This document shows, in pieces, positions 28,780 to 49,018 of a stretch of 64,000 bases of DNA. Made by a program: the position numbers and the translations under genes. Source of the DNA: Escherichia phage vB_EcoM-ZQ3; sequence record MW630116.1. One strand, given 5' to 3'. Under the pieces are notes generated by a model. The model was not told the origin of the DNA and ran no database searches. It worked only from the letters and a program-made list of their open reading frames with translations. Positions within the stretch are counted from its first letter, which is position 1; each line of letters opens with the position of its first letter.

Positions 28780-29359
28780 ATTAGTATTCGCATGTGCTCC
28801 GACTAAAACAGTTGATGATAAGCTGGAATATGCTTTTGGATTAGGTGATGGACTTCCATGGAAGCATATCAAACAAGATATGAGTAACTTTGTTGCTCGC
28901 ACTAAAAACACTGTAATGGTTATGGGTGCTAAGACTTTTGCATCATTACCTCGTCTACTACCAGATCGCACTCATGTGGTTGTCACTGATATGGCCAGAA
29001 AACTGCCTAGGACTAAAACCAACGAACTTGCACGGTTCTATATCACCCAATCTGAATTTATTACCTTGGTAACAGGTGGTGAAATTAACCTGTTTAGACC
29101 TGCAACTGACGTACCGTTTAAACTTTCTACTGAACATGTTAATGTCTCGGTTATTGGTGGTCCTGCTTTATTAAAACAAGCACTGCCTTATGCCGATGAA
29201 ATCGTGATGACTAAAATCATTAAGAAATGTCGTGTTAATTCCGATGTTCAACTTGATAAAGATTTCGTCCAAGATATTATGCTTCAACGTTCTATGGTAG
29301 AATCTCATTACTACAGAATCGATGAACTCACCGAAATTACTGAGAGCGTTTATAAATGA
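28772..29359 (+). CDS. frd: dihydrofolate reductase
   Basis: ATG 28772 inside ORF-track entry 28688..29359; 195 aa MLKLVFACAPTKTVDDKLEYAFGLGDGLPWKHIKQDM...; size and position match T4 frd; stop overlaps td start. Confidence 0.85.
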   Translation: MLKLVFACAPTKTVDDKLEYAFGLGDGLPWKHIKQDMSNFVARTKNTVMVMGAKTFASLPRLLPDRTHVVVTDMARKLPRTKTNELARFYITQSEFITLVTGGEINLFRPATDVPFKLSTEHVNVSVIGGPALLKQALPYADEIVMTKIIKKCRVNSDVQLDKDFVQDIMLQRSMVESHYYRIDELTEITESVYK

Positions 29360-30216
29360 AACAATACCAATACCTAATTAAAGATATCTTAGAAAATGGC
29401 TACGAAACAGACGACCGTACAGGTACCGGCACTATTGCCCTGTTCGGAACTAAATTACGTTGGGATCTGACTAAAGGATTCCCTGCGGTAACAACTAAGA
29501 AATTAGCATGGAAAGCTTGTATTGCCGAGTTACTGTGGTTCATGTCCGGTTCTACTAATGTTAACGAATTACGTCTTCGTACCCATGGTAGTCTAATTGA
29601 AGGTAAAACTATTTGGGACGATAATTACGAAAATCAGGCAAAAGACCTTGGGTACCATAGCGGTGAACTTGGTCCTATATATGGTAAACAATGGCGTGAT
29701 TTCGGCGGTGTAGACCAATTAGTTGAAACAATCGACCGTATTAAAAAATTACCAACTGATCGTCGTCAAATTGTTTCTGCCTGGAATCCAGCTGAAATAA
29801 ATCAAATGGCACTTCCTCCTTGCCATATGTTCTACCAGTTCAATGTGCGTAATGGTCATCTTGATTTACAATGGTATCAACGCAGTGTAGATGTTTTCTT
29901 GGGCCTGCCGTTCAACATTGCCTCGTACGCTGCCTTGACGCATATTGTAGCGAAGATGTGTAACCTTATCCCAGGTGATTTAGTGTTCTCAGGCGGCAAC
30001 ACGCATATCTACAGCAATCATGTAGAACAATGCAAAGAAGTTCTTCGTCGTGAACCTAAAGAGTTGTGTGAATTAGTTATTAACGGATTACCATACAAAT
30101 TTAGACATCTATCAACCGAAGAACAAATCGAATATGTATTAAAACTTCGTCCTAAAGACTTTATTCTTAAAAATTACGAATCACATCCAGCTATCAAAGC
30201 TAAAATGGCGGTATAA
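29356..30216 (+). CDS. td: thymidylate synthase (intron-free)
   Basis: 286-aa continuous ORF MKQYQYLIKDILENGYETDDRTGTGTIALFG...; same length as spliced T4 TS; no interruption. Confidence 0.92.
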   Translation: MKQYQYLIKDILENGYETDDRTGTGTIALFGTKLRWDLTKGFPAVTTKKLAWKACIAELLWFMSGSTNVNELRLRTHGSLIEGKTIWDDNYENQAKDLGYHSGELGPIYGKQWRDFGGVDQLVETIDRIKKLPTDRRQIVSAWNPAEINQMALPPCHMFYQFNVRNGHLDLQWYQRSVDVFLGLPFNIASYAALTHIVAKMCNLIPGDLVFSGGNTHIYSNHVEQCKEVLRREPKELCELVINGLPYKFRHLSTEEQIEYVLKLRPKDFILKNYESHPAIKAKMAV

Positions 30217-30217
30217 A

Positions 30218-30472
30218 ATGATTTTACGTTTTATTAATTCATATGGCACCACAATTTTTGAAATGAAAAATCCTACAGAACTAGATATCCCTTCGCCAAA
30301 TAGTGAAATCACAGTTAAAGGTGAACGATTCATTTGCTATTCACATGAACGAATTTATGACTATCGTGAATTTTGTGGTGGTTACGGTATAGAAAAAGAA
30401 CCGTTGGTTTATTTCGATATCACAGTCTTGACACCTAAAGAATACGAAGAAATTATTGCTGAGGATAATTAA
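30218..30472 (+). CDS. hypothetical protein (84 aa)
   Basis: ORF track; starts 2 nt after td stop. Confidence 0.5.
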   Translation: MILRFINSYGTTIFEMKNPTELDIPSPNSEITVKGERFICYSHERIYDYREFCGGYGIEKEPLVYFDITVLTPKEYEEIIAEDN

Positions 30473-30487
30473 CGCTTCAGTTTAAAA

Positions 30488-30524
30488 GTGTATAATAAAT
30501 TAACGGGATAAATACTATCCCGTT
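30488..30524 (+). promoter_or_regulatory. TGnTATAAT-like -10 (tgtataat) followed by 9-bp perfect hairpin (aacgggata / tatcccgtt) in nrdA leader
   Basis: aagtgtataataaattaacgggataaatactatcccgtttggagtaatg; hairpin 30502-30524. Confidence 0.5.
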
Positions 30525-30559
30525 TGGAGTAATGTCTATCAACCTATACTGAGGACTAT

Positions 30560-31984
30560 ATGCAAGTAACTAAGAGCAGTGGTGTATCCCAAAATTTTGA
30601 TGCACAGAAAATTATTCAAGTCTTAACTTGGCAATGTGAAGGAACACAAATTGACCCATATGAATTGTACGAAGAAATTAAGACCCATCTTGTTGACGGG
30701 ATGAGCACCAAAGATATCCAGAAGATTTGTATTAAAGTTGCAGCTAACTCGATTTCTGTCGAAGAACCTGATTATCAGTATGTCGCCGCCAAAGGGCTAA
30801 TGTTTGCACTCCGTAAAGATGTATACGGACAGTTTGAACCGCCTGCTTTTATCGACCATATTTCTTATTGTGTTAATGAAGGCAAATACGACCCTGAGCT
30901 GTTGTCTCAATATTCAGCAGAAGAAATCATTTATCTCGATTCACAGATTAAACATGAACGAGACTTTGACCTGACTTATGCTGGTGCTATGCAGCTTAAA
31001 GAAAAATATCTAGTTAAAGATAAAACAACTGGGAAGATTTATGAAACTCCACAGTTTGCTATCATGGCTATTGGTATGGCCTTACATCAAGACGAAACTC
31101 ATGACCGTTTGAAACATATTATTCGTTTTTATGATGCCGTTTCTACTCATCAAGTTTCATTGCCTACCCCAATTATGGCAGGTGCTCGTACTCCGACTCG
31201 CCAGTTCTCTAGTTGTGTAGTTATTGAAGCAGGTGATTCGTTAAAATCTATTAACAAAACTTCAGCATCAATTATTGAATATATTTCTAAACGAGCTGGT
31301 ATCGGTATCAACGTTGGTATGCTTCGTGCAGAAGGTTCTAAGATTGGTATGGGTGAAGTTCGACATACAGGTGTTATTCCATTCTGGAAACATTTCCAAA
31401 CTGCAGTAAAATCTTGTTCTCAAGGTGGTATTCGCGGTGGTGCTGCTACAGCGTATTATCCGATGTGGCACTTAGAAGTAGAGAACCTATTAGTTCTGAA
31501 AAATAACAAAGGTGTGGATGAAAACCGTATTCGACATATGGACTACGGAATTCAGATTAATGACCTTATGATGGAACGCCTTGGTAAAAATGATTATATT
31601 ACTTTATTTAGCCCTCACGAAATGTCAGGCGAACTATACTACTCGTTCTTTGAAGATCAAGATAAATTCCGTGAGCTTTATGAGAAAGCTGAAAAAGACC
31701 CGGCAATCAGAAAGAAAAGAATCAAAGCACTAGAACTCTTTGAATTGTTCATGACTGAACGTTCTGGCACTGCTCGAATTTATCCACAGTTTGTTGATAA
31801 CACGAATAACTACACTCCATTTATTCGTGAAAAAGCTCCAATTCGTCAGAGTAACTTATGTTGTGAAATCGCTATTCCAACTAATGATGTGAATAGCCAA
31901 CAAACCCGTTTAATCAAAATTAAGAAGTCGGATGTAGCTAAGTTTTATGAAGCTAATCCTGGCGGTATAATTCAAAGCAAATAA
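30560..31984 (+). CDS. nrdA: ribonucleotide reductase alpha subunit, N-terminal fragment (NrdA-a), ending just after the NLCxEI active-site motif
   Basis: 474-aa ORF; ATP-cone and catalytic core up to ...QSNLCCEIAIPTNDVNSQ, then about 25 unrelated residues and a stop. Confidence 0.88.
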   Translation: MQVTKSSGVSQNFDAQKIIQVLTWQCEGTQIDPYELYEEIKTHLVDGMSTKDIQKICIKVAANSISVEEPDYQYVAAKGLMFALRKDVYGQFEPPAFIDHISYCVNEGKYDPELLSQYSAEEIIYLDSQIKHERDFDLTYAGAMQLKEKYLVKDKTTGKIYETPQFAIMAIGMALHQDETHDRLKHIIRFYDAVSTHQVSLPTPIMAGARTPTRQFSSCVVIEAGDSLKSINKTSASIIEYISKRAGIGINVGMLRAEGSKIGMGEVRHTGVIPFWKHFQTAVKSCSQGGIRGGAATAYYPMWHLEVENLLVLKNNKGVDENRIRHMDYGIQINDLMMERLGKNDYITLFSPHEMSGELYYSFFEDQDKFRELYEKAEKDPAIRKKRIKALELFELFMTERSGTARIYPQFVDNTNNYTPFIREKAPIRQSNLCCEIAIPTNDVNSQQTRLIKIKKSDVAKFYEANPGGIIQSK

Positions 31985-32795
31985 AGTACACAGACCGTTA
32001 ATAAATAATCCATAACAAGAGGAAAAGTTATGGATTATTCTAAAATTTACAATAACCTTATTTCTAAAGCTAAGAACAGAAAATTAGATTGCTATACCGA
32101 ATCACACCATATTATACCTCTGTGTATTGGTGGTTCTGATACAAAGGAAAACCTGGTAGATTTGACACCCGAAGAGCATTACATAGCTCATCAATTATTA
32201 GTAAAGATATATCCAGATAATTATAAATTGGTATTTGCCGCTAATATGATGTGTGTTTATTCTGAAGATAATATTGAACGAAAGAACACCAATAAACGCC
32301 ATGGGTGGCTTAGAAGAAAATTGGCTATTTCTGTATCTGAAAATAATAAAGGCAAACCAGCTTGGAACAAAGGTATTCCGGTAACTGACGAGCATAGAGA
32401 AAAACTTCAAACAACTTGGGTATTTACTTTCCCAGACGGTCATGAAGAAATCCATAAAGGCCTAAGAGAATTTTGCGAACTACATTCACTCAATGCTTCG
32501 GCAATGTCGGCCGTATGCAAAGGCAAAAGGTCTCAACATAAAGGCTTTAAGTGTCGAAAGCTTGATAATATCTCTGAAAACGATAATCAAGAATACGTCA
32601 GTAAACCTCATCCAAAGGGATTAAAACCCCATAACTTAATTGCTGTAAAAATAAACGGTATAGAATATCAATCAATACATCGAGCATCTAAAGCTCTAGG
32701 AATATCTCGAAAAAAGGTAGAAGAATTAAATGAATATTGATTATGAATTTGTAGATGAATTTTACGAAGATGATGAGTATACAACAATACAAGTT
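31985..32795 (+). mobile_element. homing endonuclease gene insertion splitting nrdA (approximate boundaries)
   Basis: Segment between loss of NrdA homology in nrdA-a and its resumption in nrdA-b (around ...ENKGEVGLCTLSAF); contains the HNH ORF plus a new stop and a new start. Confidence 0.7.
32030..32740 (+). CDS. free-standing HNH homing endonuclease (MobE-like) inserted within nrdA
   Basis: 236-aa ORF; N-terminal HNH motif ESHHIIPLCIGGSDTKENLVDLTPEEHYIAH; C-terminal basic repeats (NKGKPAWNKGIPVTDEHREKL, IAVKINGIEYQSIHRASKALGISRKKVEE) typical of homing-endonuclease DNA-binding modules. Confidence 0.82.
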   Translation: MDYSKIYNNLISKAKNRKLDCYTESHHIIPLCIGGSDTKENLVDLTPEEHYIAHQLLVKIYPDNYKLVFAANMMCVYSEDNIERKNTNKRHGWLRRKLAISVSENNKGKPAWNKGIPVTDEHREKLQTTWVFTFPDGHEEIHKGLREFCELHSLNASAMSAVCKGKRSQHKGFKCRKLDNISENDNQEYVSKPHPKGLKPHNLIAVKINGIEYQSIHRASKALGISRKKVEELNEY

Positions 32796-33719
32796 ATTGA
32801 AAACAAAGGTGAAGTGGGCCTCTGCACTCTTTCTGCCTTTGTTCTTGATAAATTTGATTGGCAAGACCAAGATAAAATTAATGAACTTGCTGAAGTACAA
32901 GTACGTGCACTTGATAACCTGTTAGACTATCAAGATTATCCGGTTCCAGAAGCTTTAAAAGCTAAAAAGCGTCGAAACCTCGGGGTTGGTGTTACGAACT
33001 ATGCTGCATGGTTAGCTTCTAACTTTGCTTCATATGAAGACGCTAACGATTTGACTCATGAATTGTTTGAGAGATTGCAATATGGCCTTATCAAAGCTTC
33101 AATCAAACTCGCCAAAGAAAAAGGACCTTGTGAGTATTATTCAGACACTAAATGGTCTAGAGGCGAATTACCTATCGATTGGTACAATAAAAAGATTGAC
33201 CAAATCGCAGCCCCGAACTACGTCTGTGACTGGGAAGAACTTCGAGCTGAACTCAAAGAACATGGAATTCGTAACTCAACGTTGTCTGCACTCATGCCTT
33301 GTGAGTCAAGCAGTCAAGTATCAAACTCTACAAACGGGATTGAGCCCCCGCGCGGTCCGGTAAGTATTAAAGAATCTAAAGAAGGAAACTTCCGTCAGGT
33401 TGTTCCTAATATAGAACATAACATGAGTCTTTACGACTACGCGTGGAAACTTGCTAAGAAAGGTAATAAACCTTATTTGACCCAAGTTGCTATCATGTTG
33501 AAATGGGTGTGCCAATCTGCTTCTGCTAATACTTACTATGACCCTGCAGTATTTGAGAAAGGTAAAGTGCCAATGTCAGTAATGCTTGACGATCTGCTTT
33601 ACTTCTGGTACTTTGGCGGAAAAAACCTCTACTATCATAACACTCGTGATGGGTCAGGTACAGATGACTATGAATTAGAAACACCTAAAGCTGAAGATTG
33701 TTCTGCTTGTAAGCTTTAA
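32730..33719 (+). CDS. nrdA: ribonucleotide reductase alpha subunit, C-terminal fragment (NrdA-b)
   Basis: 329-aa ORF; after about 20 novel residues resumes NrdA homology at ...GLCTLSAF... and runs to the C-terminal redox tail ...EDCSACKL; start overlaps HNH ORF end by 11 nt. Confidence 0.88.
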   Translation: MNIDYEFVDEFYEDDEYTTIQVIENKGEVGLCTLSAFVLDKFDWQDQDKINELAEVQVRALDNLLDYQDYPVPEALKAKKRRNLGVGVTNYAAWLASNFASYEDANDLTHELFERLQYGLIKASIKLAKEKGPCEYYSDTKWSRGELPIDWYNKKIDQIAAPNYVCDWEELRAELKEHGIRNSTLSALMPCESSSQVSNSTNGIEPPRGPVSIKESKEGNFRQVVPNIEHNMSLYDYAWKLAKKGNKPYLTQVAIMLKWVCQSASANTYYDPAVFEKGKVPMSVMLDDLLYFWYFGGKNLYYHNTRDGSGTDDYELETPKAEDCSACKL

Positions 33720-33774
33720 GACTTTTGATTATAATTTACTCATGGATGAGTTAATAACTAAGTGAGAAAATATA

Positions 33775-34953
33775 ATGAGTACAGTTTTTAACACACAACA
33801 AGTCGATGTTTTGAATGAACCAATGTTCTTTGGTTCTGGTCTTGGCCTCGCACGTTATGATATTCAGCGACATAAAGTTTTTGAAGAACTTATTGAAAAG
33901 CAATTGTCGTTTTTCTGGCGCCCAGAAGAGGTAAACTTGATGTTGGACTCTGCGCAGTTCAATAAGCTTCCTCAGTTCCAACAGGACATCTTTACAAACA
34001 ATCTTAAGTATCAATCATTATTAGATTCTATCCAAGGCAGGGCCCCATCTGCGGTACTTATGGCACTGATTTCCGACCCTTCATTAGATACGTGGGTTGC
34101 AACATGGACATTCAGTGAAACTATTCACTCTCGTTCGTACACTCATATTATGCGAAATCTTTATACCGATCCATCTAAGGTATTTGATGAAATTGTATTA
34201 GACGAAGCAATCATGAAACGAGCTGAATCAATAGGTAAATATTACGATGATGTTCTGGTTAAAACTCGTTATTGGGAAAACGCTAAAGCCGATATCGAAT
34301 ACCAAAAAGAAATTAATGCAGACGAAGACGTTATTGAAGATGCTATTGAGCATGAGACATATTGGAAGCGTGAGCTAATGAAATCTCTTTATCTTTGCCT
34401 TCATGTAATTAACGCCTTAGAAGCTATTCGTTTTTACGTATCATTTGCATGTACTTTCAACTTCCATAAAAATATGGAAATTATGGAAGGTAATGCAAAG
34501 ATTATGAAGTTCATTGCTCGTGACGAACAACTCCATCTCAAGGGTACTCAGTACATTATCCGTCAACTTCAATCTGGTACTGACGGTGATGAGTGGGTTC
34601 AAATTGCTAAAGAATGTGAACAAGAAGCAGTTGACATTTTTATGGAAGTAAATAGTCAAGAGAAGGAATGGGCTGCACACCTCTTTAAAGATGGTACATG
34701 TCCAGGTATCAATACGCAGAGTATGTGTGCTTTTGTTGATTACTTGACTGTGTCTCGTATGAAACAGTGTGGTTTGCCATGTCCAATTACTGATGCTCCG
34801 ACCAAGCATCCGTATCCTTGGATTCGTGAATATCTGAACTCTGATTTAGTTCAAGCAGCTCCTCAGGAAGTTGAAATCAGTTCTTATCTTGTCGCACAAA
34901 TTGATAATGATGTAGACCAAAATGTAATCAATTCATACAAAAAATATTTCTAA
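33775..34953 (+). CDS. nrdB: ribonucleotide reductase beta subunit (intron-free)
   Basis: 392-aa continuous ORF with class Ia R2 features; T4 NrdB 388 aa. Confidence 0.9.
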   Translation: MSTVFNTQQVDVLNEPMFFGSGLGLARYDIQRHKVFEELIEKQLSFFWRPEEVNLMLDSAQFNKLPQFQQDIFTNNLKYQSLLDSIQGRAPSAVLMALISDPSLDTWVATWTFSETIHSRSYTHIMRNLYTDPSKVFDEIVLDEAIMKRAESIGKYYDDVLVKTRYWENAKADIEYQKEINADEDVIEDAIEHETYWKRELMKSLYLCLHVINALEAIRFYVSFACTFNFHKNMEIMEGNAKIMKFIARDEQLHLKGTQYIIRQLQSGTDGDEWVQIAKECEQEAVDIFMEVNSQEKEWAAHLFKDGTCPGINTQSMCAFVDYLTVSRMKQCGLPCPITDAPTKHPYPWIREYLNSDLVQAAPQEVEISSYLVAQIDNDVDQNVINSYKKYF

Positions 34954-34957
34954 GGAC

Positions 34958-34971
34958 GGGACTTCGGTCCC
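34958..34971 (+). terminator. CUUCGG hairpin (gggacttcggtccc) after nrdB
   Basis: 5-bp stem with UUCG loop; weak T-run (actttatta) and the denA start follows within 10 nt, so possibly a stability element rather than a strong terminator. Confidence 0.45.
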
Positions 34972-34979
34972 ACTTTATT

Positions 34980-35389
34980 ATGAAAGATATCGCCGCCGAA
35001 TATTCCTTTATTAAATATACAGAATTGGAGCTATTAGAAGATGCAACAATTAAAACAGTTGATGTCCCTAATAAGAAAAATGTCATATATGCTATTGCTA
35101 TAGATGACGAACTTGTGTATATTGGTAAAACCAAGAATTTAAAGAAACGCATTAACTATTATCGAACAGCCATAAATCGAAAAGACCAGACTTCAGATTC
35201 AAGAAAATCACTTATGATTTTGGATGCCTTAATGCAAGGCAAAAAGGTTGAATTCTGGGCCCGCCAATGTTTTGACCTTTCAGTCACCAACGAACTTGGT
35301 TCAATGACCATCGCAACAATGGACCTTGAAGAACCACTTTTTATCAAAAAGTTCAACCCGCCTTGGAATATCCAACATAAGAAAAAGTA

Positions 35390-35390
<1 letters not shown>
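34980..35390 (+). CDS. denA: endonuclease II (GIY-YIG family)
   Basis: 136-aa ORF (T4 DenA 136 aa) with GIY-YIG-like motif VIYAIAIDDELVYIGKTKNLKKRINYYR; position after nrdB as in T4. Confidence 0.8.
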
Positions 35391-36571
<1,181 letters not shown>

Positions 36572-36573
36572 TG

Positions 36574-36633
36574 GTTTACAAACACCAAGGAAGGTGTTAC
36601 TATGGTTTTTATCAACAACACGAGGAGAAAATT
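36574..36633 (+). promoter_or_regulatory. early promoter cassette (GTTTAC, dyad aacacc/ggtgtt, tactat -10, caacaacacgaggag RBS)
   Basis: gtttacaaacaccaaggaaggtgttactatggtttttatcaacaacacgaggagaaaattATG. Confidence 0.55.
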
Positions 36634-37134
36634 ATGAATATGCAATTGATTACTAACGATATGGTTGTGGCAGCATTTGGTGATTCTACAGATGGAATCC
36701 GAGTCTTTAAGAAAGGACGTCCAGTTGGTTATCTTACTGACCTACGTGTTACTCTAGCGAAAAATGCTAAAAAGAAGTTAAAGCAAAAGGAATATTCAAC
36801 ACGTTACACCGAAGAGAAACGTGAAGCGATGCCGGAAGCAGTTAATGCCATGGTAGAATTTCTTCAAAACAATTTGACTAAATATGACGCTAATGTGTTC
36901 ATTAATATTAGTCAACCAAATGTACATATCGCAGGTATAAAATTCTACATTATTTGCGACCCTCTTACCGACAAATTCAACCGCCTCGGAATTTCAAGTC
37001 CATATCATACAGCAGAAGAGTTGTGTGTATTGTTTGAATCGTACAAAATCCAGTGCGATGGTCCGAAAACCGTTCTTATCAATGGATTATCCCGAGATGA
37101 AATCATTGAGATTATTAAAACATGCTTAAAGTAA
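36634..37134 (+). CDS. alc: probable Alc (transcription terminator on dC-DNA), by size and synteny
   Basis: ATG 36634 inside ORF-track entry 36571..37134 gives 166 aa (T4 Alc 167 aa); lies between rnlA and the spanin pair as in T4; no motif confirmed. Confidence 0.5.
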   Translation: MNMQLITNDMVVAAFGDSTDGIRVFKKGRPVGYLTDLRVTLAKNAKKKLKQKEYSTRYTEEKREAMPEAVNAMVEFLQNNLTKYDANVFINISQPNVHIAGIKFYIICDPLTDKFNRLGISSPYHTAEELCVLFESYKIQCDGPKTVLINGLSRDEIIEIIKTCLK

Positions 37135-37478
37135 ATCCGATTTATGCTATAGTAGCAGCTTTTGCTCTAGTTTCTACGGTAACAATAGTTGTCTTAAACA
37201 ACAAAGTTGATTCGTTGAATACTGAATTAGCTTCTGTCAAAGAGACCGCTAAAAACAATGCTAAAGTATTAGACGACTTCAAGGTTCAATATCAGTCAAT
37301 CGAAGAAATGACTTATAAGAACCGTGTTTTAGTTGACCAACTTAAGGCCGAAAATGAAAAGCTCCGTAAGGATTCGAAGAAGAAGAACGTGGTGGCAAGT
37401 AAACCAGGATTGGTCGAAAAACAAATCAACAAGTCCTTCGATTCCTTTGCAGAAGACCTCAGGAAGCTCTCAGAATGA
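37122..37478 (+). CDS. i-spanin (Rz-like; T4 pseT.3 equivalent)
   Basis: 118 aa; N-terminal transmembrane helix (IYAIVAAFALVSTVTIVVL) then coiled-coil-like region; followed by lipoprotein ORF. Confidence 0.7.
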   Translation: MLKVNPIYAIVAAFALVSTVTIVVLNNKVDSLNTELASVKETAKNNAKVLDDFKVQYQSIEEMTYKNRVLVDQLKAENEKLRKDSKKKNVVASKPGLVEKQINKSFDSFAEDLRKLSE

Positions 37479-37765
37479 TTAAATTAACCGCAGTTGTATT
37501 ATCTATTAGTATTTTGGCTGGATGTGCCCAGGATGTGCCCTTAAGCCCTAAAGAAACTTTACATCCGCCATGGCCTGAATCTATTGTTGAATATAACCAG
37601 AAATGGCAAGTAAAGGTTATTGATGGTAATCCGTGGGTTGGAATGCCGTTTGAAGACTCTCAAGAATTTCGTATCTGGTTAAACGATGTAAAAAGATATG
37701 TACATGACCAGAAGACTATGATATGTTATTATCGTAGTGGTTTAAAAGAGGAAAAATGCCAATGA
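37475..37765 (+). CDS. o-spanin lipoprotein (Rz1-like; T4 pseT.2 equivalent)
   Basis: 96 aa; signal peptide with lipobox LAGC (MIKLTAVVLSISILAGCAQ); start overlaps i-spanin stop. Confidence 0.7.
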   Translation: MIKLTAVVLSISILAGCAQDVPLSPKETLHPPWPESIVEYNQKWQVKVIDGNPWVGMPFEDSQEFRIWLNDVKRYVHDQKTMICYYRSGLKEEKCQ

Positions 37766-37980
37766 CTAAAGAACAACATGAATACATTAAAGGGCTTATC
37801 TATGAATCTGAAATGGCGGCTATGATTTATGGGCGCCAGATTCAACGATTAGAATCTTTGCCTCCGACTAATGACCGATTGTTAGTTCAGTCTCGTGCTA
37901 ATCTGAAAAATGAATATCAGAATAAGTGGGCAGTAGCGACTAAAGCTCTTCACGAGTATATTGAATCTTTAGTAAAATAG
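37756..37980 (+). CDS. hypothetical protein (74 aa)
   Basis: ORF track. Confidence 0.5.
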   Translation: MPMTKEQHEYIKGLIYESEMAAMIYGRQIQRLESLPPTNDRLLVQSRANLKNEYQNKWAVATKALHEYIESLVK

Positions 37981-38037
37981 TTTACAAACTCTCAGGAGCA
38001 GAGTATAATGCTCCTATGGATAATTGAGGAAATCTAA
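37980..38037 (+). promoter_or_regulatory. early promoter cassette with 7-bp dyad (aggagca / tgctcct) flanking TATAAT
   Basis: gtttacaaactctcaggagcagagtataatgctcctatggataattgaggaaatctaaATG. Confidence 0.55.
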
Positions 38038-38336
38038 ATGAAAACATTACTAGAGAATTACATCAAACGGTCTGATGAGTATATTGATATCTGTCGTGGA
38101 ATGTCACTCGGCAATTATGACAAAGATGCAGCAAAGGCACTAGATGAAGCAGGTAAAGCTCTTCGTAAAGCTGCTAAAGAAAAAGGGTTGGATTTGCAAC
38201 AACTCAAAAGTCATATGATTAAATTTATTTCTTCAAACGTTAGAAGTACGTCAATTAATAAAAACGTTGCTGAAATTAATAAAGACCGGCGCGAGCATAA
38301 CATTCGTATTCTTGAAATTTTCTTAGGAATAAAATA

Positions 38337-38337
<1 letters not shown>
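38038..38337 (+). CDS. hypothetical protein (99 aa)
   Basis: ORF track. Confidence 0.5.
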
Positions 38338-39419
<1,082 letters not shown>

Positions 39420-39420
<1 letters not shown>

Positions 39421-39611
39421 TGAAACGATTATATGAAGTGATTGAGGCCATCGAACAGCATAAAGAATATTTGTTTGTAGCCTGGCCTTTAGTAAATGGA
39501 CAGTTCGGTATTGATGTGCTGGACTATGAGCATGAAGAACGTTTGGACGGTGGTATATTTGATAACGTCGACCAGGCAATTGAATGGTTAAATGAAAACT
39601 ATGTACGATAA
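39420..39611 (+). CDS. hypothetical protein (63 aa)
   Basis: ORF track; start overlaps pseT stop. Confidence 0.45.
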
Positions 39612-39816
39612 ACATCATGAAATCGAAGATGAAGCATACAAAATGCTTCGTAAACTAGTGGGACTTAATATGAGTCCTACATTAATCAACAAACTCGCAG
39701 GAATTCGTAATGATCTGAATACTCGTTACAAAGGTGAATATCATGTAGAGTTTGTTCCTGTAGGTGAACCGACCGAGCGATTTGTTGTTCGAGTTAAAGT
39801 AAATACTGTACACTGA
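39592..39816 (+). CDS. hypothetical protein (74 aa)
   Basis: ORF track. Confidence 0.45.
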   Translation: MKTMYDKHHEIEDEAYKMLRKLVGLNMSPTLINKLAGIRNDLNTRYKGEYHVEFVPVGEPTERFVVRVKVNTVH

Positions 39817-39823
39817 GGTAATT

Positions 39824-40099
39824 ATGTTCCCAACTTATTCTGAAATTGTAAAGGTAGTCTTCAGTCAGATTATTGCTAATAATATGTTTGAAGTGCTTGA
39901 TAATGCAGCCGAACTCAGAGTTCATGCTCAACTAACTCATGTACTCAATGCTTTGCTCCCAGACCAAGTAGATTCTATTGCTATTACTCTTCTCCCTGGG
40001 TCTGCACACGTCATAGTGGTATTTGATCTTGACGGCGATTTAGTTATCCAATGTGATATCAATTTCGGTACACAAAAAATTGAATGCAAAGCAATTTAA
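39824..40099 (+). CDS. hypothetical protein (91 aa)
   Basis: ORF track. Confidence 0.45.
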   Translation: MFPTYSEIVKVVFSQIIANNMFEVLDNAAELRVHAQLTHVLNALLPDQVDSIAITLLPGSAHVIVVFDLDGDLVIQCDINFGTQKIECKAI

Positions 40100-40101
40100 T
40101 G

Positions 40102-40159
40102 GTTTACAACATGGTGGAGTTGTGATACTATAACTCTACCAACAAATGAGGAAATAGAA
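40102..40159 (+). promoter_or_regulatory. early promoter cassette with 9-bp dyad (ggtggagtt / aactctacc)
   Basis: gtttacaacatggtggagttgtgatactataactctaccaacaaatgaggaaatagaaATG. Confidence 0.55.
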
Positions 40160-40396
40160 ATGCTAAGTGAAAACCCAATTACAGTACACGAATTTCAGAT
40201 TAAAGTAAAAGAATTTGCTCAAGCACTCATCAATAAAGTGTCTGAACGTTTCCAAGATGCAACATTACGAGTTATTCAAGAATCTCCACGTTCTTTTCTC
40301 ATAATCGTTAATCCTAAAGATGGTGACCAAATTACTAATCTTAAATTAGGCAGTGATGGTCTTGTTGAAGCAACTCGAGTATATGGAACACTATAA
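40160..40396 (+). CDS. hypothetical protein (78 aa)
   Basis: ORF track. Confidence 0.5.
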   Translation: MLSENPITVHEFQIKVKEFAQALINKVSERFQDATLRVIQESPRSFLIIVNPKDGDQITNLKLGSDGLVEATRVYGTL

Positions 40397-40516
40397 TGAG
40401 AGCTATCTCATTACTATCGTGAATGGTCATAAATCTGAGCACTACCAACTTAGCCTGTCTAATCCGGTTAAAGGTATTGTTGAATCAGAATCTGTTTATA
40501 TCTCCTAAGGATTGTT

Positions 40517-41509
40517 ATGTTACCTGTCATCAGAAAACTTATTTCTCCAAAAGAACTGGCTGAGATTATTCCTTTGTCGGAAGCTTACGCATCACAAGTG
40601 GCTTCTCATCGCGAACAAGTTAATTCGATTATGAACGGTGAAGACCCACGCAAACTTATTGTTGTAGGTCCTTGTTCAATTCATGACCCTATTGCTGCTG
40701 TTGAATACGGCAAACGTCTGGCTGAACTTCAAACTCGTCTTCCTAATGTTCTGTTAGTGATGCGCGTTTATTTTGAAAAGCCTCGAACTACCGTAGGTTG
40801 GAAAGGTCTTGTAAATGATCCATATCTTGACGGAAGTTTTGATATGAACCACGGTCTTATAGTTGCACGAACATTGTGTCGTAAACTTCTACGTATGGGA
40901 CTTCCATTAGCAACTGAAGTATTAGACCCATTCACGATTAAGTATCTTTCTGGTATTTTCTCATGGGTTGCTATTGGCGCCCGTACGACTGAAAGTCAGA
41001 CACATCGTGAAATTGCTTCAGGTCTACCGATGTGCGTAGGCTTCAAGAACGCAACCAATGGTTCTATTAAAGTAGCTACAGACGCGATGTATAGTGCCGC
41101 CTGGCCTCATCGGTATATGGGTATGGACGTCGATGGTACTGTAGGCATTGTTGAAGCTGAAGGTAATCAGAATACGCATATCGTATTGCGTGGCGGGACT
41201 AACGGCCCGAACTATCATTCTTCTGATATTCAAGAAGCTTCTAACAAAGCAAGTGCATTAGGTCTGAATCATTATGTAATGGTTGACTGTAGCCATGCAA
41301 ACGCTGATGGGTATTATAGCAATCAAATTGGTATTGGTAAAAATTTAGCAGCTAATGATTTGGTCAAAGGAATTATGATAGAATCATTCCTACATGAAGG
41401 AAATCAAAAAATTTCTGATAATATGTCCTATGGCGTTTCCGTTACCGATGCGTGCATCGGTTGGGAACAAACTAAAGAGCTGTTAACTTATATTAATAAG
41501 GTTCAATAA
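40517..41509 (+). CDS. 3-deoxy-D-arabino-heptulosonate 7-phosphate (DAHP) synthase, class I alpha (AroG/AroF/AroH-like)
   Basis: 330-aa ORF with canonical motifs aligned to E. coli AroG as I recall it: VVGPCSIHDP, MRVYFEKPRTTVGWKGL, IGARTTESQTHRE, VGFKN, DCSHAN, ESFLHEGNQ, TDACIGWE; stop overlaps cd start. Confidence 0.9.
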   Translation: MLPVIRKLISPKELAEIIPLSEAYASQVASHREQVNSIMNGEDPRKLIVVGPCSIHDPIAAVEYGKRLAELQTRLPNVLLVMRVYFEKPRTTVGWKGLVNDPYLDGSFDMNHGLIVARTLCRKLLRMGLPLATEVLDPFTIKYLSGIFSWVAIGARTTESQTHREIASGLPMCVGFKNATNGSIKVATDAMYSAAWPHRYMGMDVDGTVGIVEAEGNQNTHIVLRGGTNGPNYHSSDIQEASNKASALGLNHYVMVDCSHANADGYYSNQIGIGKNLAANDLVKGIMIESFLHEGNQKISDNMSYGVSVTDACIGWEQTKELLTYINKVQ

Positions 41510-42090
41510 TGAAAGCTAGCACATATCTTCAAATTGCTTATTTGATTTCTCAAGAATCAAAATGTTGTTCATGGAAAGTTGGTGCCGTCATTGAAAAAGA
41601 TGGACGCATTATCTCTACTGGATATAATGGCTCACCCGCAGGTGGCGTTAACTGTTGTGAACATGCATCCGAAAATGGTTGGTTGAAGAATAAACCAAGC
41701 CCGGTCATCGTTGCTGGACATAAAGAAGGCACTACAGCATTTGGACGGGCAGATAATTTTGTTTTGGCTAAAGAACATCGGGCCGCTCATAGTGCATGGT
41801 CTGCCAATAACGAAATCCATGCGGAACTGAATGCAATTTTGTTTGCAGCTCGTAAAGGTAATTCTATTGAAGGTGCTACGTTATATACTACGCTTTCTCC
41901 ATGTCCTGATTGCACTAAAGCTATTACGCAGTCAGGTATTAAAAAGGTTGTATATGCAGAATTATATGACCGATCTCCTGAAAATTGGGCAGACATTCTT
42001 AAACAAGCTGGTATTGAAGTAATTCAGTACTCTCGTAATAATCTTCGTTCTCTGAATTGGGAACAAATCCGAAACTTTTGTGGTGAATAA
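41509..42090 (+). CDS. cd: dCMP deaminase
   Basis: 193-aa ORF (T4 Cd 193 aa) with zinc-binding deaminase motifs HAELNAI and SPCPDC. Confidence 0.88.
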   Translation: MKASTYLQIAYLISQESKCCSWKVGAVIEKDGRIISTGYNGSPAGGVNCCEHASENGWLKNKPSPVIVAGHKEGTTAFGRADNFVLAKEHRAAHSAWSANNEIHAELNAILFAARKGNSIEGATLYTTLSPCPDCTKAITQSGIKKVVYAELYDRSPENWADILKQAGIEVIQYSRNNLRSLNWEQIRNFCGE

Positions 42091-42091
42091 T

Positions 42092-42388
42092 ATGATTTTA
42101 ACTGAACAAGAAACTATGGTTCTTCGTGAACGTATTAAAACTATTCTGTCTGTAGGCGTTCATTGTGTTGTATTTGAAAAGGCTAACGGTGATGTTCGTA
42201 CGATGTTTGCCTCCCGTGATGAACTTGAAGTCAAATACGAAAATAACAATCCGGCAACAGAAGTTCGTTATGAACCTCGTGAATCAGTTCGAGCATTCGA
42301 TACCAAGTTAGGCCAGTGGCGTTCTTTCCGCCTTGATAAAGTAATTTCGGTTGATGGTACTCCGGTAGAACGTTTGCTTCTTATGTAA
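42092..42388 (+). CDS. hypothetical protein (98 aa)
   Basis: ATG 42092 inside ORF-track entry 42080..42388. Confidence 0.5.
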   Translation: MILTEQETMVLRERIKTILSVGVHCVVFEKANGDVRTMFASRDELEVKYENNNPATEVRYEPRESVRAFDTKLGQWRSFRLDKVISVDGTPVERLLLM

Positions 42389-42445
42389 TATGCTTTACGA
42401 ATAGTATGGTATTATTAATCTATCGTCAAACAACAAGGAAATAAG

Positions 42446-42778
42446 ATGTCTGAAGTACAACTCCCAATTCGTGCTATTGGTGAATATGTCATTCTGGTTT
42501 CTGAACCTGCTCAAGCAGGTGATGAAGAAGTTACCGAATCAGGACTTGTGATTGGTAAACGTGTTCAAGGTGAAGTTCCTGAACTATGCGTAGTTCATTC
42601 TGTAGGTCCTGATGTTCCTGAAGGTTTTGTTGAAGTAGGTGATTTGACTCCACTACCAGTTGGACAAATTCGAAATGTTCCACATCCATTTGTGGCTTTG
42701 GGACTTAAACAACCTAAAGAAATTAAACAGAAATTCGTAACATGCCACTATAAAGCTATTCCGTGTCTTTATAAGTGA
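42446..42778 (+). CDS. 31: gp31 co-chaperonin (GroES-like) for capsid folding
   Basis: 110-aa [45 protein letters not shown]...[14 protein letters not shown], matching T4 gp31 as I recall it. Confidence 0.9.
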
Positions 42779-42779
42779 T

Positions 42780-42787
42780 ATAAATAA
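42780..42787 (+). promoter_or_regulatory. late promoter TATAAATA upstream of rIII
   Basis: gtgatataaataac; followed by hairpin gaagagaacactcttc. Confidence 0.5.
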
Positions 42788-42902
42788 CTATATGAAGAGA
42801 ACACTCTTCTAAGCGGTAGCCTACAACTGAGAGACTTGTCGAAAGAAGGTGAAATTCAGACGAACGTGGCTACTAAATATTATCTCGAATTGAGAATTTA
42901 AA

Positions 42903-43151
42903 ATGATTAAACAATTACAACACGCTCTTGAACTGCAACGCAACGCATGGAATAACGGTCACGAAAACTATGGCGCATCTATTGATGTTGAAGCCGAAGC
43001 TCTTGAAATCCTGCGTTATTTCAAACATCTGAACCCAGCACAGGCCGCACTGGCTACTGAACTGGAAGCAAAAGATGAACTGAAATATGCTAAGCCTTTG
43101 GCTTCAGCAGCTCGTAAAGCAGTACGTCATTTTATTATTACCCTGAAGTAA
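42903..43151 (+). CDS. rIII: rIII lysis inhibition accessory protein
   Basis: 82-aa ORF MIKQLQHALELQRNAWNNGHENYGASIDVEAEALEILRYFKHLNPAQ..., matching T4 rIII (82 aa) as I recall it. Confidence 0.9.
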   Translation: MIKQLQHALELQRNAWNNGHENYGASIDVEAEALEILRYFKHLNPAQAALATELEAKDELKYAKPLASAARKAVRHFIITLK

Positions 43152-43516
43152 GTTAAATCGAGGAGCCGTCGAACTGTCTGATTAATGATTTGCGAATCAT
43201 TATAGTTTTAAGACCCCGGCAGTTTTACGGTGTACCTCTTGAATGTTATTCTTATAGCGGCAAGTGCATGCTACCCCGAGGTGATGGCCAATCGGGAGTA
43301 CGCCTCAAGGCCTATATATCCATCAGTATATATCTTATCCTCGAGAAATCGAACCCGGAACCTTTAAGCTAACGGTGTGCAACAGATAAGAGCTATAAGG
43401 TATGATGACGGGTTTATGGTTATCCTGTCGTTAAATATCCGAAAACCTATGTTCCCCTTGAGGGCTTGCGCAGGCAATGTCAATAAGTCCTGCATTTTCA
43501 TTAAAGAGAATTTATA
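43152..43516. other. ORF-poor, relatively GC-rich intergenic region (about 365 nt) of unknown function
   Basis: No convincing ORF in any frame; contains hairpin taatgatt-tgcg-aatcatta (43183-43202); atypical for this otherwise tightly packed AT-rich genome. Confidence 0.5.
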
Positions 43517-43696
43517 ATGGCAAAACAAGCTAAAGCAAAGAAAGCAGTTGAAAAGAAAGTTGATGGTACCTCTAAACGCGCTGGATACAAGCGTGGGTCG
43601 AACTCTCGTATTAATCAAACAGTTGAGAAGATCATGCGCAGAGCACGTGCAGTTCTTCGAGATGATGCTTCTCGTTTTGGAAAGGTTGTTGCATAA
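43517..43696 (+). CDS. small lysine-rich basic protein (59 aa), tentative
   Basis: ATG 43517, TAA 43694-43696; MAKQAKAKKAVEKKVDGTSKRAGYKRGSNSRINQTVEKIMRRARAVLRDD...; followed by a strong terminator; an alternative overlapping frame (43548..43733) exists. Confidence 0.4.
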   Translation: MAKQAKAKKAVEKKVDGTSKRAGYKRGSNSRINQTVEKIMRRARAVLRDDASRFGKVVA

Positions 43697-43701
43697 TTTT
43701 A

Positions 43702-43724
43702 GGGAGACTTCGGTCTCCCTTTTG
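43702..43724 (+). terminator. rho-independent terminator (gggagacttcggtctccc + T-run)
   Basis: Identical hairpin to the one at 27707; followed by ttttgtgcgttt. Confidence 0.65.
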
Positions 43725-43756
43725 TGCGTTTAGGGCAGAAAAAGTTTAAAAAAGAT

Positions 43757-43827
43757 GTTTACTCTCCTGTAGGATGTGTTACTATAGACTTGTACCACCT
43801 AATCAATAAAAACAACCGGAGAATAAA
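43757..43827 (+). promoter_or_regulatory. early promoter cassette (GTTTAC ... tactatag ... ggagaataaaATG)
   Basis: gtttactctcctgtaggatgtgttactatagacttgtaccacctaatcaataaaaacaaccggagaataaaATG. Confidence 0.5.
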
Positions 43828-44199
43828 ATGAACACTATCAATTTAAATGCTACAATTAAATGCCGTGACCATGATGGATATAAATCTCAAGTTGTTAACG
43901 AGTTACAGTGGATGGTTCGTTCAGTTCAAGGTGATGTGGTTTATTGTACAACTCCTGATGGCCCTTCAGACGATTTTTGTTATCATATCGAAATTGAAAA
44001 CTTTTTCACTGGTGAAATTTACCGTCTGAATTCTACAGTTTATGGTTGTATTCGTTCTAAAACTTACGAAGATGAAGAGACTGGTTACTCTGAAGATGTT
44101 GTATGGTACGAAAATGCCAGAAATCGTGCAGAGTCATTAATCGAGAAGATTAAAGCAAAAGGTGTTATTGATTCAGCTAAGTGGACAAAAATCAAATAA
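43828..44199 (+). CDS. hypothetical protein (123 aa)
   Basis: ORF track; promoter cassette upstream. Confidence 0.55.
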   Translation: MNTINLNATIKCRDHDGYKSQVVNELQWMVRSVQGDVVYCTTPDGPSDDFCYHIEIENFFTGEIYRLNSTVYGCIRSKTYEDEETGYSEDVVWYENARNRAESLIEKIKAKGVIDSAKWTKIK

Positions 44200-44203
44200 A
44201 AAT

Positions 44204-44273
44204 GTTTACTTTGGTACAGGTTATGTTATTATAGACCTGTACCAACAAACAACTTAAACATCTGGAGAATAAA
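44204..44273 (+). promoter_or_regulatory. early promoter cassette with perfect 8-bp dyad (ggtacagg / cctgtacc)
   Basis: gtttactttggtacaggttatgttattatagacctgtaccaacaaacaacttaaacatctggagaataaaATG. Confidence 0.6.
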
Positions 44274-44639
44274 ATGAACTACACCAACTTCGAACGCAAA
44301 TATGTTTCTAACGGTATCGCTGGTTCTATCGATATGGTTTGTTTGTGGAAGCATAAAAATGGTTCAGTATGTGAAATTGAGCAGTGCATGGCTCCTAATT
44401 ATGTTTATATGCGATTTGAAAATGGCATCACGGTTTCAATCACGATGGAAGGTTCCAACTTCAAAATTGCATTAGATGACGATTTCCGTCAACGTGATTT
44501 AGGTACTCATCCTTGCTGGAACGGTGTTAATCGTAAACTTCTGGTTAAAACTTGGATTCGTCATATCCTGAGTAACCGAGCTAAACCTGAACACCTGGAA
44601 GCAATCTTTGATGTAGTTCTGAACGAATTCGACATCTAA
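44274..44639 (+). CDS. hypothetical protein (121 aa)
   Basis: ORF track. Confidence 0.55.
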   Translation: MNYTNFERKYVSNGIAGSIDMVCLWKHKNGSVCEIEQCMAPNYVYMRFENGITVSITMEGSNFKIALDDDFRQRDLGTHPCWNGVNRKLLVKTWIRHILSNRAKPEHLEAIFDVVLNEFDI

Positions 44640-44646
44640 TTTAACT

Positions 44647-44662
44647 GGGAGCTTCGGCTCCC
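44647..44662 (+). other. CUUCGG hairpin (gggagcttcggctccc) without T-run, immediately upstream of an RBS
   Basis: Hairpin ends 4 nt before gagg RBS of the ORF at 44675; more consistent with an mRNA stability or processing element than a terminator. Confidence 0.5.
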
Positions 44663-44674
44663 ACTGAGGAAATT

Positions 44675-45289
44675 ATGTTTAAAGTTAATACTTTTTATAA
44701 AATGAATTTTAAAAATGGGGATATTACTCCACGCCTTAAAAACATGTTCTCATATGACCTTATCGAGCCTTTTGAAGTTTTAGAAGTTACTGATGCCGGC
44801 TCGGTTTGTGAAATTAGAACTTCTGAAGGTAAAATTTATCAGGCAGGTGTTGGTAAATTCAGTAATTGTTTTACTTTAATATTCTCGACCGATTTAGATG
44901 AGCATTTTATTGAATGTCCTAACCCTAAGGTCCACGAAGTTCCACATCAAGAAACTAAGAAAAATGGCCCGCACGAATATACGAAGGTTGAAACTCCTCA
45001 CGGCGTGATGTGGCGTCATAACTCTCCTTTTGGAAGTAAAGGAACATTTGCTCAACCGTCTAAACCGTATGACGATGAAAAATACATCGTCGTCTTTTTA
45101 TCTGAACAAGGTACTCAAGACCGTGGATGCCAGCGAAGTGGTTTACTAAGTGAACTTGAAGCTCATAACCAAGCACGTGAATTCGTTGAGAAAAATCCTG
45201 GTTCTGAAGCTCTAGTCATGAAAGCAATTACTCAATATATCACTGCTCAACCTGTTGTTCATCCGGTAGAAATTAATTTCGTTAAGTAG
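44675..45289 (+). CDS. hypothetical protein (204 aa)
   Basis: ORF track. Confidence 0.55.
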   Translation: MFKVNTFYKMNFKNGDITPRLKNMFSYDLIEPFEVLEVTDAGSVCEIRTSEGKIYQAGVGKFSNCFTLIFSTDLDEHFIECPNPKVHEVPHQETKKNGPHEYTKVETPHGVMWRHNSPFGSKGTFAQPSKPYDDEKYIVVFLSEQGTQDRGCQRSGLLSELEAHNQAREFVEKNPGSEALVMKAITQYITAQPVVHPVEINFVK

Positions 45290-45343
45290 TTTACATCCAA
45301 GGACGGATTAGAGTATAATGATTTCTTTAGTAAGTGGAAAAAT
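45289..45343 (+). promoter_or_regulatory. early promoter (GTTTAC ... TATAAT)
   Basis: gtttacatccaaggacggattagagtataatgatttctttagtaagtggaaaaatATG. Confidence 0.5.
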
Positions 45344-45541
45344 ATGAAATTTTTAATAGCACAAACAGTTCAATTAAAAGGTGTTGGAATTCCTGGGGTG
45401 ATTTTTAAAGTTCTCCCTGAATTTAAAACCGGCGCTGGAATTATCAATGAAGCGTATGCTGTTCAATGGGTTGATTGGACTTCTGACATACGTATGGGTA
45501 AAGAGTTATCTCCTATTAAAGGGTTGAAACATGTTGAATAA
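45344..45541 (+). CDS. hypothetical protein (65 aa)
   Basis: ORF track. Confidence 0.45.
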   Translation: MKFLIAQTVQLKGVGIPGVIFKVLPEFKTGAGIINEAYAVQWVDWTSDIRMGKELSPIKGLKHVE

Positions 45542-45743
45542 ATTAATCCAGAAATTGTTTGGTACGGAAATGATCGAAGTTACTTATCGTGTAACAGACT
45601 GCTCGCCTATTCATCCACAGGATGAACCGTTTATCAAGACAATTAAAATGCTTAAAAATGACGGTGGTTTATCTATTGAAGACCGTCTGCCTAGTTACGG
45701 ACATTGGGCTGATGTTGAAATTATAAGTGTTAAAGATGTCTGA
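45531..45743 (+). CDS. hypothetical protein (70 aa)
   Basis: ORF track. Confidence 0.45.
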   Translation: MLNKLIQKLFGTEMIEVTYRVTDCSPIHPQDEPFIKTIKMLKNDGGLSIEDRLPSYGHWADVEIISVKDV

Positions 45744-46194
45744 ATTAGAAATAAGAAGCAATTTCAAATGGCCGTCATGCGCATTAAGTAATTTTGCCCA
45801 GTGGCCTTTCGTTATGGATGGTATTCAATTCGGAGGTCTTGAAGGATTTCTCCAAGGATGTAAGGTGAAAAATGTTGAACAACAAAGACGTATATTTGGG
45901 CTGTCAGGACTGGCCGCACAGCAAGCTGGAAGGTCTTATGCAAGAGCTCAGGACCATGGGACTCTCTTCTGGTTAGGAGTTCCATTTTCAAGATACTCTG
46001 AAGCATGGAAAGAATTATATACAAATGCATATTTTGAAGCAGCGATCCAAAACAAGGGGTTTCGCGACGCCTTACAAGCCTCTAAAGGAAAAATTTTGAA
46101 GCACAGCATGGCCAGCCACCTAACAAAAGATGATACAATATTAACTGAAGCTGAATTTATTGATGTGTTAAACCTATTAAGAGACTCTTTATGA
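45736..46194 (+). CDS. NADAR-like (DUF1768/YbiA-like) domain protein, tentative
   Basis: ATG 45736 inside ORF-track entry 45727..46194; motif ...ALSNFAQWPFVMDGIQFGGLEGFLQGCKV... resembles the NADAR signature (SNF...PF..DG..F...E.F.Q..K). Confidence 0.5.
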   Translation: MSELEIRSNFKWPSCALSNFAQWPFVMDGIQFGGLEGFLQGCKVKNVEQQRRIFGLSGLAAQQAGRSYARAQDHGTLFWLGVPFSRYSEAWKELYTNAYFEAAIQNKGFRDALQASKGKILKHSMASHLTKDDTILTEAEFIDVLNLLRDSL

Positions 46195-47006: not shown

Positions 47007-47015
47007 GGGTTAATT

Positions 47016-48984: not shown

Positions 48985-49018
48985 CATAAATATAAATTAT
49001 TACTAAAAGGAAAACACT

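Follow-up and report, generated by a model that had tools for sequence, protein, structure and literature searches.

An Aeh1-type MobE cassette divides nrdA into two genes in a T-even coliphage

Layout of the divided nrdA locus

The 64,000-nucleotide (nt) stretch of Escherichia phage vB_EcoM-ZQ3 DNA analysed here (record MW630116.1; hereafter the window) carries nrdA, which encodes the large ribonucleotide reductase (RNR) subunit, as two separate genes with a MobE-type HNH endonuclease gene between them. The source phage is a Mosigvirus-like T-even coliphage: its nrdA region is 98.2% identical to that of Escherichia phage AV111, and the 20 kb beyond this region match Shigella phage phi25-307 and phage F2 at 98% identity. 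An earlier note on this DNA had proposed that a homing endonuclease splits nrdA at the active-site coding region. The locus comprises four genes (aa, amino acids; ORF, open reading frame):

30560-31984, + strand: nrdA-a, 474 aa (ORF list, Pfam, alignments)
32030-32740, + strand: HNH gene, MobE-type and free-standing, 236 aa (Pfam, PHROG 655, MobE alignments)
32730-33719, + strand: nrdA-b, 329 aa (ORF list, Pfam, alignments)
33775-34953, + strand: nrdB, 392 aa, intact and without intron; small-subunit partner of the split large subunit

The HNH gene shares the frame of nrdA-a, from which it is separated by 45 nt and two in-frame stops (31982 and 32003), and nrdA-b, in a frame different from both, overlaps the end of the HNH gene by 11 nt. 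This is the order of events read in the earlier note. The NrdA frame does end at 31984, shortly after NLCxEI (ORF list and alignment to E. coli R1), the middle ORF is a free-standing HNH protein of 236 aa by its matches to PHROG 655, T4 MobE and Aeh1 MobE, and NrdA homology resumes at GLCTLSAF in a third ORF and another frame (ORF list, the NCBIfam profile NF006578 and alignment to the intact gene of phage vB_Eco_F27).

No part of the enzyme is lost or doubled at the break. On NF006578 (class Ia NrdA, 761 positions), NrdA-a covers positions 5-452 (E 3e-184) and NrdA-b positions 451-760 (E 3e-112). In Pfam, NrdA-a matches the ATP-cone, Ribonuc_red_lgN and positions 1-221 of the 523 of the barrel domain, of which NrdA-b matches 219-523. 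Thus NrdA-a is made of the N-terminal 445-446 NrdA residues (ATP cone, all-alpha domain and first half of the barrel) plus a basic tail, and NrdA-b of a 26-residue acidic tail followed by the C-terminal 303 NrdA residues. Alignment to E. coli R1, one of the checks that the earlier note had suggested, places the break after NLCCEI and ahead of GLCTLSAF, in the loop between the equivalents of Cys439 and Cys462; homology ends at the N453 equivalent in NrdA-a and is picked up at the G457 equivalent in NrdA-b, without loss to the catalytic core. The catalytic residues are divided between the two chains, with C219 (C225 in E. coli), N432 (N437), C434 (C439) and E436 (E441) on NrdA-a, and C32 (C462), Y301/Y302 (Y730/Y731) and the C324-x-x-C327 pair (C754/C759) on NrdA-b.

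The limits of the insert follow from comparison with a close relative, as the earlier note had also advised. Phage vB_Eco_F27 has an intact nrdA of 751 aa and is 97-98.5% identical to the window on both sides, but homology breaks off at 31894 and restarts at 32810, so that a 915-nt insert stands in place of 11 nt of the intact gene. At the protein level, NrdA-a residues 1-445 align with residues 1-445 of vB_Eco_F27 NrdA at 99.8% identity, and NrdA-b residues 27-329 with its residues 449-751 at 99.0%. The insert has a GC content of 0.336, against 0.38-0.41 in its flanks, and contains more than the endonuclease gene (pI, isoelectric point):

31895-32809, + strand: cassette, made of a-tail coding, spacer, HNH gene and b-tail coding
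31895-31981, + strand: coding for the NrdA-a C-terminal tail SQQTRLIKIKKSDVAKFYEANPGGIIQSK, pI 10.0; missing from intact relatives
32730-32807, + strand: coding for the NrdA-b N-terminal tail MNIDYEFVDEFYEDDEYTTIQVIENK, acidic, pI 4.05 (calculated for residues 1-29)

The cassette thus consists of an HNH gene with coding stretches of about 87 nt and 78 nt on either side, and its insertion point is the tip of the finger loop at the active site. Compared with intact NrdA, the extra residues number 28-29 on NrdA-a and 26 on NrdA-b; the earlier note had rightly seen both tails, but its lengths of about 25 and about 20 codons were too short.

The endonuclease, the tails and the spread of the cassette

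The HNH protein matches PHROG 655, 'homing endonuclease', at E 4e-60. Comparison with MobE proteins, proposed in the earlier note, gave 46% identity over 126 aa with T4 MobE and 48% over 227 aa with Aeh1 MobE (E 3e-62). Residues H26, H27, N41, H50 and H54 of its N-terminal HNH nuclease domain are invariant with Aeh1 MobE, and an I-HmuI_NUMOD-like Pfam match (32.2 bits, over the cut-off) marks a predicted C-terminal DNA-binding region. In a comparison of six cassette-bearing alleles aligned with one intact allele, the ORF is 236 aa long in all six cassettes and its ratio of nonsynonymous to synonymous substitution rates (dN/dS) is 0.15-0.26; the endonuclease is thus under maintenance. The C-terminal half of the gene (32330-32729, presumably DNA-binding) exists in two versions, at 81% versus 99% nucleotide identity: vB_Eco_F26 and BYEP01 are 81% identical to the window there, yet 98-99% identical in the N-terminal half and in the tails. 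Since this segment diverges while the remainder is nearly identical, the cassette is itself a mosaic.

Signals that may govern expression of the endonuclease lie at its start:

32000-32039, + strand: putative HNH control region, with a promoter-like octamer and a hairpin

The octamer AATAAATA (32000-32007) matches the T4 late promoter TATAAATA at 7 of 8 positions. It runs into a 13-bp RNA hairpin (arms 32004-32016 and 32027-32039) that spans the spacer and the first HNH codons, holding a Shine-Dalgarno sequence, GAGG (32019-32022), in its loop and the AUG (32030) inside its 3' arm; the region folds with z = -3.5, and none of 200 shuffles folds equally well. The Aeh1 spacer likewise folds into a hairpin over the mobE start, in agreement with published work (cited in PMC2988022); that hairpin pairs the Shine-Dalgarno sequence, whereas the one in the window covers the AUG and leaves the Shine-Dalgarno sequence in the loop. 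As we read the sequence, a late transcript starting from AATAAATA would be without the 5' arm, a layout that would parallel the published model for I-TevI and Aeh1 mobE. The hairpin probably restrains translation of the endonuclease, and late transcripts would release it.

The tails link the cassette closely to the split nrdA of Aeromonas phage Aeh1, the precedent that the earlier note had named and that the literature (PMC3045599, PMC2988022) and our comparison of the loci uphold. Aligned segments of the window and Aeh1 tails (TRLIKIKKSDVAKF with KMLFKVKKSEVDKF; EFYEDDEYTTIQVIE with EVYEDEEYTTVEIEV) have in common the motifs L.K.KKS.V.KF in the a-tail and YED(D/E)EYTT in the b-tail, and a Smith-Waterman comparison of the tails only gives z = 11, a score reached by 0 of 2000 shuffles. 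The isoelectric points of 10.0 and 4.05 in the window compare with 10.4 and 3.8 in Aeh1 (PMC3045599). In a multiple alignment both pairs of tails fill identical insert columns of the loop, and the nrdA-b start codon sits at the position homologous to that of Aeh1 nrdA-b. Because endonuclease, tails, layout and loop columns all correspond, we conclude that the two elements belong to one cassette family at one site. An independent look-alike of the Aeh1 element was considered and rejected, given the homology of endonuclease and tails and the identical loop columns.

The authors of the Aeh1 study found no database match for the tails and proposed that they were foreign DNA gained with mobE (PMC3045599). 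The Aeh1 relatives phiAS5, PX29, Ah1 and AsFcp, when checked, did not have the tails, and Aeh1 is thus not the home lineage of the insert. In fact, close relatives of both Aeh1 and the window phage are without it, so the tails came with the endonuclease gene in both lineages.

The three-gene layout recurs in 34 phage records, from Mosigvirus and Tequatrovirus phages of Escherichia, Shigella, Yersinia and Salmonella. Between the window and the Tequatrovirus HY01, the cassette (31895-32809) is 99.7-100% identical, against 70-83% for the nrdA flanks; broken down by side, nrdA is 69-89% identical on the left and, past about 70 nt, 72-84% identical on the right. A near-identical cassette between diverged flanks is clear evidence that it spread recently and as one unit. 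The first nucleotides on the right bear a likely trace of this movement:

32810-32850, + strand: co-conversion tract in the downstream exon, coding GLCTLSAFVLDKF; patchwork of synonymous variants

Here the window differs at about 10 synonymous positions from AV111 and the intact F27, both otherwise near-identical to it (98-100% for F27), and agrees with HY01 across most of the tract; AV111 returns to host-type sequence after about 12 nt, and the length of the donor-exon tract varies among cassette-bearing phages. The patchwork looks like the variable co-conversion tracts left by recombinational repair, which suggests that the break is made near, and probably downstream of, the insertion point.

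Beyond these records, an IMG/VR scan with the HNH alignment returned Aeh1 and canonical nrdA-mobE-nrdB loci and no further split nrdA, and one with a back-translated YED(D/E)EYTT pattern returned Aeh1 and two unrelated contigs only. A loop-plus-tail profile run against a large protein database gave short fragments only and no new context; two further tail variants (P0001 and P0002) are among the fragments.

The neighbouring genes vary between relatives. In the window td (29356-30216) and nrdB (33775-34953) are unbroken; td is annotated in pieces in F27, F26 and BYEP01, and nrdB in AV111, F26 and BYEP01. An endonuclease gene lies between the td or nrdB pieces in F27, F26 and AV111, none is annotated in BYEP01, and in F26 a 1.6-kb 'endonuclease' gene separates nrdA-b from nrdB. 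The td-nrdA-nrdB region is a hot spot whose complement of selfish elements differs from phage to phage. Downstream of nrdB, the ORF at 34980-35390 (136 aa, GIY-YIG match) is DenA (endonuclease II) according to the annotation of HY01 and F2, and was rejected on that ground as a homing endonuclease. The RNA ligase 1 gene follows at 35447-36571; in Acinetobacter phage 133, near the RNR operon, rnlA is annotated 'split RnlA RNA ligase 1' (locus L016, 5095-5246), another gene in pieces. Further on, at 36000-56000, the annotation of relatives has DAHP synthase (aroF-like) and ribD-like genes beside baseplate and ligase genes; the former two have metabolic roles that are unusual in a T-even phage.

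Proposed function of the divided reductase and possible origin of its tails

We propose that a MobE-type cassette of the Aeh1 family divides nrdA into two genes whose products join non-covalently into an active enzyme, a reading to which we give a probability of about 0.85. In a mixed infection, the endonuclease would nick or cut cassette-free nrdA near the loop, and the recipient would then acquire the cassette, plus a little of the donor exon next to it, through recombinational repair. By analogy with Aeh1 biochemistry, NrdA-a and NrdA-b would associate without a covalent link and build a single active site to which both chains contribute residues, and with NrdB they would form an (alpha-a/alpha-b)2 beta2 holoenzyme. 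The basic tail of NrdA-a and the acidic tail of NrdA-b may be required for this assembly, as measured in Aeh1. There, the divided enzyme has full activity in the form (alpha-a/alpha-b)2 beta2 (PMC3045599; PMC2988022), the tails are retained on the mature proteins, as seen by mass spectrometry, and they are needed for dimerisation of the heterodimer, tight NrdB binding and activity (PMC3045599).

Several points weigh against this proposal. The Pfam HNH match taken alone scores 17.9 bits, under the gathering score of 21.4 bits, and the assignment as a nuclease therefore relies on MobE homology and PHROG 655. The promoter-like octamer agrees at 7 of 8 positions only, and the co-conversion pattern is indirect evidence of homing. 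Split-enzyme and endonuclease activity in the coliphage carriers are extrapolated from Aeh1 and T4 MobE. In addition, T4 nrdA is dispensable in laboratory hosts, and a recent cassette could in principle have inactivated nrdA, with purging still to come.

In the strongest alternative, the cassette has inactivated nrdA and left a young pair of pseudogenes, the phage relying on host NrdAB or on its own anaerobic reductase. Established T4 genetics, in which nrdA is non-essential in laboratory hosts, would permit this, and since the insertion is recent (cassettes from different hosts are about 100% identical) the intact halves say little on selection after it. We nonetheless regard it as improbable. 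Motif, length and charge of the tails are kept between the window and Aeh1 despite an endonuclease identity of 48%, which argues for long-term selection on them, and the nrdA-b start codon has stayed at the Aeh1-homologous position. Both ORFs are open and all catalytic residues are kept in the six cassette alleles, and in Aeh1 the divided enzyme shows full activity, for which it needs the tails (PMC3045599).

Far less likely still is restoration of a continuous NrdA by splicing, either of a group I intron with an HNH ORF or through tails that act as a split intein. The idea has precedents: T-even phages bear endonuclease-containing group I introns in td, nrdB and nrdD, td and nrdB are interrupted in this manner in relatives of the source phage, and split inteins are found in nrdA from metagenomes (PMC2677866). 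In the region 29000-36000, however, Rfam cmscan at E <= 1 matched no intron family and no P3-P9 core, its sole match being a chance snoRNA, and the sequence outside the HNH ORF (about 135 nt and about 70 nt, mostly tail coding) is too short for an intron core. A Pfam search of the ORFs gave no intein or Hint domain; the tails of 29 and 26 aa are without the terminal Cys/Ser and the His-Asn-plus-nucleophile signatures; and the homologous Aeh1 tails are present on the mature proteins (PMC3045599). The view of the earlier note, that these are genes in pieces and not an intein, is thus supported. A sequencing or assembly artefact or chimera, the first of which that note had named as a possible refutation, is barely credible in view of the identical layout in 34 independently deposited records, the clean boundaries and the frames that are open throughout.

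A lead on where the tails come from is given by NrdA proteins that are not divided. A tblastn search with the end of NrdA-a gave a query cover of at least 80% in 100 records, 34 of them split genes; the other 66 come from T4-like phages of Acinetobacter, in which NrdA is unbroken, is 803 aa long and has an insert of 54-57 aa in exactly the loop that the cassette occupies. NrdA-a and NrdA-b together also come to 803 aa, and the window tails together to 55 aa. The insert is present in 65 Acinetobacter phage records (60-100% identity) and in uncultured relatives, among which P0069 stands for a lineage of its own; Vibrio phage vB_VmeM-32 and Stenotrophomonas jumbo phages have inserts of 46-50 aa in this loop. 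Insert-bearing, unbroken nrdA genes are found, for example, at:

L012, 1113-3524: Acinetobacter phage vB_AbaM_3014
L016, 1202-3613: Acinetobacter phage 133
L014, 1211-3589: Vibrio phage vB_VmeM-32
L015, 1190-3652: Stenotrophomonas phage RAS14

The insert is polymorphic: Acinetobacter phage Acj61 and P0063 are without it, and yet P0063 shares 81% identity with the insert-bearing P0058 in the rest of the protein. In 185,579 genomes of bacteria and archaea (GTDB), a pattern scan did not find the Acinetobacter-type insert. Apparent b-tail extensions that tblastn gave in Dhakavirus, Jiaodavirus and Karamvirus proved on checking to be ordinary intact genes with no insert. Alignments to the NrdA models PRK07088, PRK12364 and PRK08447 extend slightly into the tails, reaching residue 453-460 of NrdA-a and beginning at residue 13-20 of NrdA-b; longer finger loops may be present in some cellular NrdA families too.

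In a structure prediction of P0040, an Acinetobacter phage NrdA (mean predicted local distance difference test score, pLDDT, 78.8), the insert has a pLDDT of 86-93 and would consist of a strand (449-457), a helix (458-468), a two-residue strand and two further strands (483-485 and 495-503). A model of the fused window NrdA has the same element order (447-455, 456-465, 470-471, 479-482 and 491-499), with the 474|475 break in its least confident stretch, and this model is not independent of the insert, as its alignment held unbroken inserts.

We therefore consider, tentatively and with the odds somewhat against it, that each tail is one half of a small folded domain, about 55 residues long, which extends the finger loop and is whole in the NrdA of nearly all T4-like Acinetobacter phages. 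MobE would then sit in a surface loop of this small domain, the cassette would carry both half-domains, and the split enzyme would reassemble through their fragment complementation, which would account for the indispensability of the tails. Against a profile of the insert only, the window tails score 8.8 bits, a value reached by 2 of 2000 shuffles, and their hydropathy correlates with that of the insert at 0.52 (0.28 for Aeh1; both computed on an optimised alignment). Against the half-domain idea, the Aeh1 tails alone do not match the insert-only profile, pairwise scores between tails and insert without flanks are not significant (z 1.5-1.8), and hhalign of tails versus insert gives P 0.025-0.037. 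As to the order of events, should the idea be right, we mildly favour that MobE entered an existing small domain and that the cassette exported its halves, because the predicted fold is compact and confident. Possibly the endonuclease came first, and the unbroken inserts are scars of its loss followed by in-frame re-fusion; the base composition of the unbroken inserts did not discriminate between the two.

Significance and comparison with known systems

The coliphage split nrdA is a further member of the Aeh1-type MobE-split nrdA genes, a kind already known. A 2022 preprint mentions such cases as unpublished, and a 2023 paper refers to split RNR as 'at least one instance' (PMC10448857); beyond the passing mention in the preprint, our literature search found no paper describing the coliphage cases, which are annotated piecemeal in GenBank. 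New here are the exact boundaries of the insertion, the homology of tails and endonuclease to those of Aeh1, the recent lateral spread in T-even coliphages and, as a lead, a testable idea for the origin of the tails. The Aeh1 split reductase has so far been treated as essentially a single case (e.g. PMC10448857). The same cassette and tails have now been recently mobile in E. coli T-even phages, beside near-identical cassette-free relatives, which brings the MobE cut site, tail co-conversion and the assembly of a two-chain active site within the best available genetic system. If the link to the insert is true, it would give the tails an origin and provide a recipe for surviving gene division: a break inside a dispensable, self-complementing small domain.

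Among known systems, Aeh1 stands closest. Its genes encode 473, 237 and 323 aa, the first two separated by 46 nt and the last two overlapping by 14 nt, and so mirror the 474, 236 and 329 aa, 45 nt and 11 nt of the window; the identical NrdA loop is broken, in the identical gene order, by a homologous endonuclease, with homologous tails, one basic and one acidic, a hairpin across the endonuclease translation start and the same division of catalytic residues between the halves (PMC3045599). The differences are of lineage and of evidence. Aeh1 belongs to the lineage Cinqassovirus and not to the T-even coliphages, and its tails are about 35-40% identical to those of the window; its split enzyme has been studied biochemically (Crona et al. 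2010/2011) and that of the window through its sequence, and it is for the window version that many near-identical carriers make the spread of the cassette visible.

T4 MobE has a homologous HNH domain and is likewise tied to the aerobic RNR operon. However, it is only 141 aa long and is without the long C-terminal region of the window HNH protein, it lies between nrdA and nrdB, as the earlier note had stated, and splits no gene, and its target is nrdB (Wilson and Edgell 2009; PMC2988022). Endonucleases borne by introns (I-TevI, I-TevIII) or inteins resemble the window element as selfish occupants of conserved regions in nucleotide-metabolism genes (RNR, td), but their host product is restored by RNA or protein splicing, of which the window element shows no intron or intein signature. 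The T4 mobA cassette differs in its target gene and in a 50-nt translational bypass, to which nothing in the window is comparable. Yet it operates in a similar manner: an HNH Mob endonuclease divides an essential enzyme gene, that of the topoisomerase large subunit (genes 39 and 60), and tail-like extensions of both products move with the element (PMC2988022; bioRxiv 10.1101/2022.08.31.505936).

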